The translations under genes and the position numbers were made by a program. A stretch of 64,000 nucleotides of DNA from Escherichia coli (GTDB lineage: Bacteria > Pseudomonadota > Gammaproteobacteria > Enterobacterales > Enterobacteriaceae). The stretch is taken from assembly GCF_001677475.2 (NCBI RefSeq), contig NZ_CP015229.1; one strand, given 5' to 3'. The number at the start of each line of letters is the position of its first letter. The first letter of the stretch is position 1. Positions 46,248 to 47,900 of this stretch are shown piece by piece. The notes under the pieces were generated by a model. That model was given only the letters and a program-made list of their open reading frames with translations, did not search any database and was not told the origin of the DNA.

Positions 46248-47900
46248 TTAACCCTGCAGCAGAGACAGAACCTGCTGCGGTACCTGGTTAGCTTTTGCCA
46301 GCACGGAGTTACCGGCCTGCTGGATGATCTGCGCTTTCGACATGTTGGACACTTCGGTCGCATAGTCGGCGTCCTGAATACGGGACTGCGCTTCAGACAG
46401 GTTGGTAGTGGTGTTGTTCAGGTTGGTGACGGCGGAATCCAGACGGTTTTGCACCGCACCGAGGGAAGAACGGAATTTGTCGATGGAGCTGATGGCTTCG
46501 TCCAGAGCTTTCAGGGGATCGGCTGTCGTAGCTGCTTTTGTTTCAGCATCTGTCGTCAATTTACCGTCAGCATCTTTATAAACTGCCTTACCGCTGCCGT
46601 TAGTCACTGAACCATCATCCTGTAGGTAAAAATCTACAGTATCAGATGTGGTCAACGCCCCGTTGTTATCAACATAAACCGAATTACCACCTTTTGTTAC
46701 AGCGCCAGTTGTGCCGTTTACGCTATAACCTGCGGTAGTGAAATCAACATTGTTTCCAGAGGTTGATACAGCTTTATCGAAAGCTGCCTGATCAACTTTT
46801 GCACCTGTTACTGAATAAGTAATAGTGTCCGGCGTAGTACTATTACCGGTAAAGGAGATAGAGGTACCGCCAATGTCAATGGTTGTCGCTTTGGTATCAT
46901 TGGCTGCAAGTGTGGACAGACTAGCCTCAGTCAAAGATGCACCAGAGCCGTTTTTCGTTAAGCGCCCAGTTGTATCAATGTAGAGTTTATCTCCATTGCT
47001 TGCCGTAATTTTACCATCACTGCTGATCTGAACATCCTGTGCAGAACCATCGATAGTAATAGTGCCCTTAGCGGTATCACCAACACCTGGGGTCAAATAT
47101 TTCTGAACATCGGCAGCTGAAGCCGTTGTGGTATCAAAAGAGTAAGACTTACTTGCACTATCATACTTGTAATTCGTTGCACTAGCCGCCGTTCCGAAGC
47201 CGTTATTAATGGTTGCCTGAACAGTATCACCATCACTAACTCCAGCCAGCAAATCAGACGCTTTAGCAGCATCGTAACCCGCACTCACAGTATATTTGTT
47301 GCCGACCACAGTTGCATTAGCAGCTACCAAGTCAGCTTTAGATGCAGCAGTGTTAGCGACAGAACCGCCACCATTCACATTAAACCCACTCAGCCCCAGA
47401 GTATCAGAGTCAATTTTTTTCAGATCAATAGTGATAGTCTGGCCGTCGTTCGCACCAACCTGAATTTTCATGGAACCGTCTTTTGCCAGTACGTTCACGC
47501 CGTTGAACTGGGTCTGACCGGATACGCGGTCAATTTCATCAAGACGGGATTTGATTTCGTCCTGAATGGAGTCCAGATCCGAATCAGAGTTAGTCCCGGT
47601 AGAAGCCTGAACCGTCAGCTCACGGATACGCTGTAAGTTGTTGTTGATTTCGGACAGCGCGCCTTCAGTGGTCTGTGCAACAGAAATACCGTCGTTGGCG
47701 TTACGTGCCGCCTGAGTCAGGCCTTTAATGTTAGAAGTAAAACGGTTAGCAATCGCCTGACCCGCGGCGTCATCCTTCGCGCTGTTAATACGCAAGCCAG
47801 AAGACAGACGCTCGATAGAACTCGACAGCGCAGACTGGTTCTTGTTGATATTATTTTGAGTGATCAGCGAGAGGCTGTTGGTATTAATGACTTGTGCCAT
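46248..47900 (-). CDS. fliC: Flagellin FliC (H antigen), non-K-12 allele
   Basis: 550-aa ORF; N- and C-terminal domains match E. coli FliC, central domain differs from the 498-aa K-12 allele. Confidence 0.95.

Follow-up and report, generated by a model that had tools for sequence, protein, structure and literature searches.

Flagellins of the H6, H7 and Achromobacter types carry three outer domains, D2-D4, which dimerise or tetramerise and thereby build an outer-domain sheath, whereas the outer domains of the K-12 flagellin are unrelated to these and form no sheath (PMC8931119). The EPEC H6 (7SN7/7SQJ) and EHEC O157:H7 (7SN4) flagellins, with 546-585 aa, are similar in size to the protein described here; in the outer domains they share only about half of their residues with it, and they thus represent a different H antigen. 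The K-12 H48 flagellin (PDB 8CXM) and Salmonella FliC agree with it in gene, locus and promoter, and in a D0/D1 core with 92-100% identity per 25-residue block in residues 1-150 and 476-550, but their outer domains are unrelated. The H14 flagellins, namely those of the strains STEC435 and FAM21845 and the product of the cryptic fliC of Shigella flexneri, match it in length (550 aa), in locus and, at the protein level, in their conserved ends, which are identical.

We analysed the fliC gene in a 64,000-nt stretch of Escherichia coli DNA (contig NZ_CP015229.1; hereafter, the window). In our reading, to which we give a probability of about 90%, this chromosomal fliC is a minority variant of the H14 family that has outer domains of the H6/H7 class, is most likely expressed and has been shaped by recombination.

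The fliC gene and its outer domains

The fliC coding sequence (46248-47900, minus strand) was identified from the ORF list, from Pfam matches and from identity of its product to WP_034173522.1 / ANO89633.1. The reading frame is intact, with an ATG start and 550 codons followed by TAA, and the ORF list contains no competing frame of at least 80 aa that overlaps it on the opposite strand. The gene is sited between fliA (45209-45928, minus) and fliD (48166-49572, plus), in the same order as in K-12. In Pfam, Flagellin_N matched residues 5-140 (E = 1.4e-46) and Flagellin_C residues 463-548 (E = 4.6e-32), both far past the gathering cut-off, and the PF12445 'FliC' domain matched residues 330-454 (E = 4.6e-28). 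The product is a bacterial flagellin of the FliC/FljB family, with helical terminal domains around a variable middle.

Three segments can be delimited on the minus strand. Codons 1-170 (47391-47900) form the N-terminal D0/D1 filament-core segment, as defined by identity to K-12 and by modelled helices. Codons 171-460 (46521-47390), which have no K-12 match, make up the hypervariable outer-domain region, the determinant of the H antigen. Codons 461-550 and the stop codon (46248-46520) form the C-terminal D1/D0 segment, as defined by identity to K-12 and the Flagellin_C match. In the predicted model, the N-terminal helices span residues 2-40, 45-101 and 106-130, and the C-terminal ones residues 462-513 and 519-549. 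These conserved D0/D1 helices would polymerise into the filament core, and the ~280 central residues would fold into the surface-exposed outer domains that bear the H antigen. The outer region (~180-450) was modelled with pLDDT of 85-91, and the core with only modest confidence. The N-terminal segment also contains a conserved 11-residue motif at residues 89-99, which we take to be the D1 stretch recognised by TLR5.

The reference for comparison was the MG1655 locus (NC_000913.3), whose FliC has 498 aa. In a global alignment read in 25-residue blocks, identity was 92-100% over residues 1-150 and 76% over 151-175; it fell to 4-48%, with many gaps, over 176-450, and rose to 60% over 451-475 and 100% over 476-550. 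The central 290 aa gave no significant BLASTP match to K-12 FliC, the best being an 18-residue patch with E = 0.025, and the central DNA gave no blastn match to K-12. The domain architecture differs as well: the middle of the K-12 protein consists of Flagellin_D3 (PF08884) and FLIC_barrel (PF21504), both absent from the window protein, which has PF12445 instead. The outer domains thus lie outside the K-12 H48 / Salmonella type. These results bear out an earlier note made from the letters of the window, which had placed a 550-aa fliC exactly where the ORF list puts the intact gene (giving no strand) and had put the K-12 allele at 498 aa. The note had also described conserved ends of about 170 and 90 aa, with which the block identities agree, and a centre completely different from that of K-12; the identity to the K-12 centre that would have contradicted it did not appear in the alignment.

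A phmmer search of the PDB with the central 290 aa returned only the EPEC O127:H6 flagellin (7SN7/7SQJ), with E = 2.6e-25 and a match that spans all 290 aa. Taken whole, the protein aligns over its entire length with the H6 and EHEC H7 (7SN4) flagellins, and with that of K-12 (8CXM) at the two ends only. In Foldseek, the best matches of the predicted model were 7sn4, 9n59 (Azotobacter), 7sn7 and 7sqd (Achromobacter), with E from 1e-39 to 7e-28. The top five hits all belong to the H6/H7/Achromobacter class, with low global TM-scores (0.33-0.37) that are expected for a flexible multi-domain monomer, and we take the Foldseek ranking as supporting evidence only. The Salmonella and K-12 filaments rank next, with TMq of 0.18 and a match to the core only. 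Judged by these alignments, the outer domains are homologous to those of the three-domain (D2-D4) H6/H7 class, and we infer that H14 belongs to this structural class. A sheath built by H14 flagellin would be an extrapolation from outer domains that are ~45-50% identical. In a protein search, hits to the central domain were mainly fragments, along with relatives from Atlantibacter hermannii at 43-54% identity.

Relationship to H14 flagellins

Of 5426 complete E. coli genomes, only 47 contain the 870-nt fliC centre, and their identities fall into three grades: 99.7-99.8% in four genomes, 97.6-97.8% in six and 96.6-96.9% in 37. No fliC of another type among these 5426 genomes matches it. The largest grade includes three strains with an H14 label, and in each of them (FAM21845, STEC435 and 873.10) the centre is 96.6-96.7% identical to that of the window over the 870 nt. 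FAM21845 and STEC435 are given in strain tables as O68:H14 (PMC5514686) and O91:H14 (PMC10675304), respectively. The record title of 873.10 (NZ_CP061754.1) reads O18ac:H14. Because an IS3-family element cuts off the 5' end of fliC in 873.10, this label is probably an in silico call and not serology. In silico typing tools work with identity of roughly at least 85% over most of the gene. By the identity of its central region, the window fliC is placed in the H14 family, on the basis of strain labels (from papers and one record title) and not of a curated H-typing set. The earlier note had pointed to this region as the one that defines the H antigen, and it is the centre that gives the allele its place here.

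The allele is not new; it is a catalogued H14 type, and both the exact protein and its DNA are already in public data, points that the earlier note lacks, as it does the H6/H7 class of the outer domains. The protein (WP_034173522.1 / ANO89633.1 / UniProt A0A193LTU5) is found on 180 contigs. Two draft assemblies, GCA_018682815.1 and GCA_019135775.1, match the window DNA at 100% across the locus; identity is 100% for draft L014 in the stretch 44450-57002 and 99.98% for draft L016 in the stretch 44450-57032. Literature searches for the strains ETEC1738 and 2012EL-2448 gave no paper, and hence no published serotype for the exact variant.

Within the family, the window fliC is a minority variant. 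Its protein differs from the common H14 form by 13 residue changes, which all fall within positions 180-410 of the outer domains and include a dense patch at 395-410 (N395D, T397A, G405V, N406A, S407P and V410I). It differs by four residues from an intermediate, variant B, and by 7-8 from the 550-aa FliC of S. flexneri, which falls in the same 90% cluster. According to molecular typing, 93.2% of S. flexneri are H14 (PMC11529414).

The 13 differences could, in principle, change the antigen, and the allele may be a serologically distinct subtype, or even a new H type similar to H14 only in its sequence. Apart from the dense patch, this idea draws on the pattern of substitution relative to the common H14 allele, with dN/dS = 0.30 in the centre and no nonsynonymous change in the ends, and on the precedent of H1 and H12, which are distinct antigens despite only seven differing residues (PMC4753304). 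We nevertheless consider it improbable, as strains labelled H14 have alleles to which the centre is 96.7% identical at the DNA level and ~95.5% at the protein level. Variation accepted within one H type can be wider than this, H28 alleles being only 92% alike and thus varying by 8% (PMC4753304). Moreover, the window protein and the common one are bridged by variant B and by the form found in S. flexneri, itself typed as H14. Serological identity cannot be proved from sequence, given the seven residues that separate H1 from H12 and the 8% by which H28 alleles vary. We would expect the window flagellin, as an H14-family protein, to react with H14 antiserum, with a small doubt left by the 13 outer-domain substitutions.

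Transcription and flagellar neighbours

The consensus of sigma-28 promoters is TAAAGTTT-N11-GCCGATAA. Upstream of fliC, a class-3 sigma-28 (FliA) promoter, TAAAGGTT-N11-GACGATAA, was read from the sequence at 47977-48003 (minus), and pattern matching located a divergent sigma-28 promoter for fliDST, TAAACTTT-N11-GCCGATAA, at 48096-48122 (plus). The intergenic region with the fliC promoter is 100% identical across all the non-K-12 loci compared. We also observed a third perfect motif of the sigma-28 type, TAAAGTTT-N11-GCCGATAA, upstream of tar at 17638-17664 (minus), consistent with a class-3 promoter of the tar-tap-che operon.

At the other end of the transcript, a scan found a strong intrinsic terminator at 46057-46073 (minus), with seven G-C pairs followed by a T-run, ~175 nt past the stop codon. 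The fliC 3'UTR (46074-46247) is the counterpart of the K-12 stretch, directly downstream of fliC, that is annotated as the sRNA FliX. The intergenic region downstream of fliC is 93.8% identical to K-12, and an Rfam scan of 44000-50000 returned nothing at the gathering score.

The neighbouring genes are likewise intact. FliA, the sigma-28 factor for fliC transcription (45209-45928, minus; 239 aa), is 99.6% identical to K-12 FliA, with no gaps or stops. On the plus strand, fliD for the filament cap, fliS for the flagellin export chaperone and fliT (together 48166-50372) are full-length and 97.5-99.6% identical to their K-12 counterparts. In total, 21 flagellar and chemotaxis genes lie wholly inside the window (flhEAB, cheZYBR, tap, tar, cheWA, motBA, flhCD, fliZ, fliA, fliDST and fliE), and all are full-length without gaps or stops; fliF also matches K-12 as far as the end of the window. 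Two ORFs are longer than in K-12, tcyJ (43724-44581, minus; 285 aa against 266) and fliZ (44612-45199, minus; 195 aa against 183). These are not real differences, because the additional length comes from upstream in-frame starts and the K-12-length proteins align in full.

Since the sigma-28 promoter and the neighbouring flagellar genes are intact, fliC is most likely expressed. The gene might still be cryptic, that is, intact yet unexpressed, as in S. flexneri of the same allele family. S. flexneri is non-motile. Its FliC is the near relative described above, and an IS3 element has destroyed fliC in at least one H14 strain of E. coli. We regard a cryptic gene as quite unlikely here, because the promoter is accompanied by fliA, flhDC, motAB, the che genes, flhBAE and fliDST, all full-length and free of stops in a check that covered the window, beyond whose end lie fliG-R and the flg operons. 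Furthermore, the fliC of ETEC1738, which encodes the identical protein, differs at 27 nt, and all 27 are synonymous third-position changes, as expected under continuing purifying selection on the protein. Expression of the H14-family flagellin thus seems the better account.

Ancestry of the locus

The 27 differences from ETEC1738 are distributed very unevenly: 16 fall in nt 1-501 and nine in nt 1431-1653, with only two in the 929 nt between. The corresponding dS values are 0.143 for the N-terminal part, 0.009 for the centre and 0.146 for the C-terminal part (Fisher p = 7e-8 for ends against centre, at third positions). In terms of identity, the centre is 99.8% and the conserved ends are 96.7-96.9% identical. 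For the 870-nt centre, defined a priori, the probability of two or fewer differences is 2e-4 to 7e-8 at a background divergence of 1.5-2.5%. The centre is not intrinsically slow-evolving, because its dS against the common H14 allele is 0.073.

The ends also have relatives of their own. For the N-terminal 510 nt, the nearest sequences (98.8%) are H1-type alleles from strains of the CFT073/Nissle/LF82 type, and identity to H14 strains is 96.7-96.9%. For the C-terminal 273 nt, the nearest (98.9%) are the fliC genes of strains named as other H types, O145:H28 and O121:H19. The conserved ends of the window allele, identical in protein to those of the common H14 allele, are thus of different DNA ancestry.

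Sister genomes give a complementary view, since some with flanks 99.7-99.9% identical to the window have unrelated fliC centres. Two such loci, L015 and L017, have the flanks in common with the window and not the fliC, with the breakpoint ~150 nt into the gene. In L015 there are 0-2 mismatches per 250 nt from ~47,750 rightwards, except for short patches near 50,000-50,500, 54,250 and 56,250, and the divergence sets in abruptly ~150 nt into fliC. Likewise, in genomes with the exact AmyA of the window, different fliC alleles (572, 554 and 560 aa) take the place of this one, with only 33-44% identity in the centre. We propose that homologous recombination inside and around fliC gave rise to the present allele, and that the variable cassette has an ancestry different from, and much more recent than, that of the two conserved ends and of the chromosome around them. 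The description of this region in the earlier note as a hotspot of horizontal exchange finds support both in the dS mosaic and in the unrelated alleles of the sister genomes.

Unequal mutation, or selection at synonymous sites, could also make differences uneven, given that the ends encode highly expressed, strongly constrained helices in which codon usage could behave differently and that our comparison covered only a handful of genomes, but this is very improbable, as the constrained ends have a dS 15-fold above that of the centre (the reverse of what constraint predicts), the same centre reaches dS = 0.073 against another H14 allele, the two ends are nearest to alleles of different H types, and in sister genomes whose flanks are identical there is an abrupt change to another fliC. 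We therefore retain recombination as the origin of the uneven pattern.

The chromosome around fliC is collinear with MG1655 1,954,342-2,014,446, with a weighted identity of ~96.8% over 59.7 kb. The window lacks the IS1 found upstream of flhDC in MG1655 (~23411-23418), and in place of the K-12 yecV/yecT segment (~770 bp) it has ~40 bp (7445-7485). The identity, the missing IS1 and an extra 5.1 kb by fliE agree with the statement of the earlier note that the window is not from K-12. The closest of the 5426 complete RefSeq E. coli genomes reach 97.7% over 1-15000, 98.6% over 30000-46000 and ~97% over 48166-63900. These values suggest a background from a poorly sampled or deep-branching lineage, and we suspect that it may be cryptic clade I; NCBI labels the proteins of the window E. 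coli. A Shigella origin of the window was considered and rejected: databases assign the exact protein to E. coli, the window has an intact flagellar regulon, and FliC is 7-8 residues away from that of S. flexneri.

We also observed several features elsewhere in the window and in related records. The extra DNA relative to K-12 is an insertion of ~5.1 kb adjoining fliE (57002-62104), both borders of which align to K-12 2,012,561-2,012,720. It contains an IS3-family transposase gene (57051-57863), a truncated fusion of SRAP/YedK-like and Dam parts (58428-59018) and an ORF of 272 aa (59015-59833) with only a weak HEPN match. It also contains an intact gene for a 433-aa tyrosine integrase (60932-62233), the counterpart of the K-12 pseudogene intG. 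L014, otherwise 100% identical to the window, is without this insertion. At the place of the K-12 pseudogene yedN, the window has an intact 372-aa gene combining DUF5503 and leucine-rich repeats (55513-56631, minus), and the region at this position is a hotspot at which sister genomes diverge, by 25-58 mismatches per 250 nt. Finally, a 28-mer from the fliC-fliD intergenic region had a single match in GTDB, searched with one genome per species, in JAIJJM010000281.1. This 3.9-kb contig of a 'Collinsella sp.' MAG holds E. coli-like fliD-fliC-fliA DNA with flanks 96-97% identical to the window and a fliC centre of another type; its presence in a Collinsella bin looks like bin contamination.

With regard to the source of the cassette, one tentative and rather doubtful idea is that it moved recently, through recombination within fliC, between a deep-branching Escherichia lineage and mainstream pig and environmental E. 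coli. If this were true, the minority variant would be a marker of genetic exchange between deeply separated lineages, and it might be a subtype of H14 that can be told apart antigenically.

The window fliC represents an ordinary, long-known polymorphism of the E. coli H antigen, and the value of the result lies mainly in annotation: the H type of the strain is assigned to the H14 family, and the window is confirmed as not K-12. The gene is also a textbook example of a mosaic, with conserved ends and a variable cassette of different ancestries. One lead of modest use is that H14, and by implication the cryptic flagellin of S. flexneri, would belong to the sheath-forming H6/H7 class. Membership in this class predicts that the filament would behave like those of H6 and H7 rather than like that of K-12.
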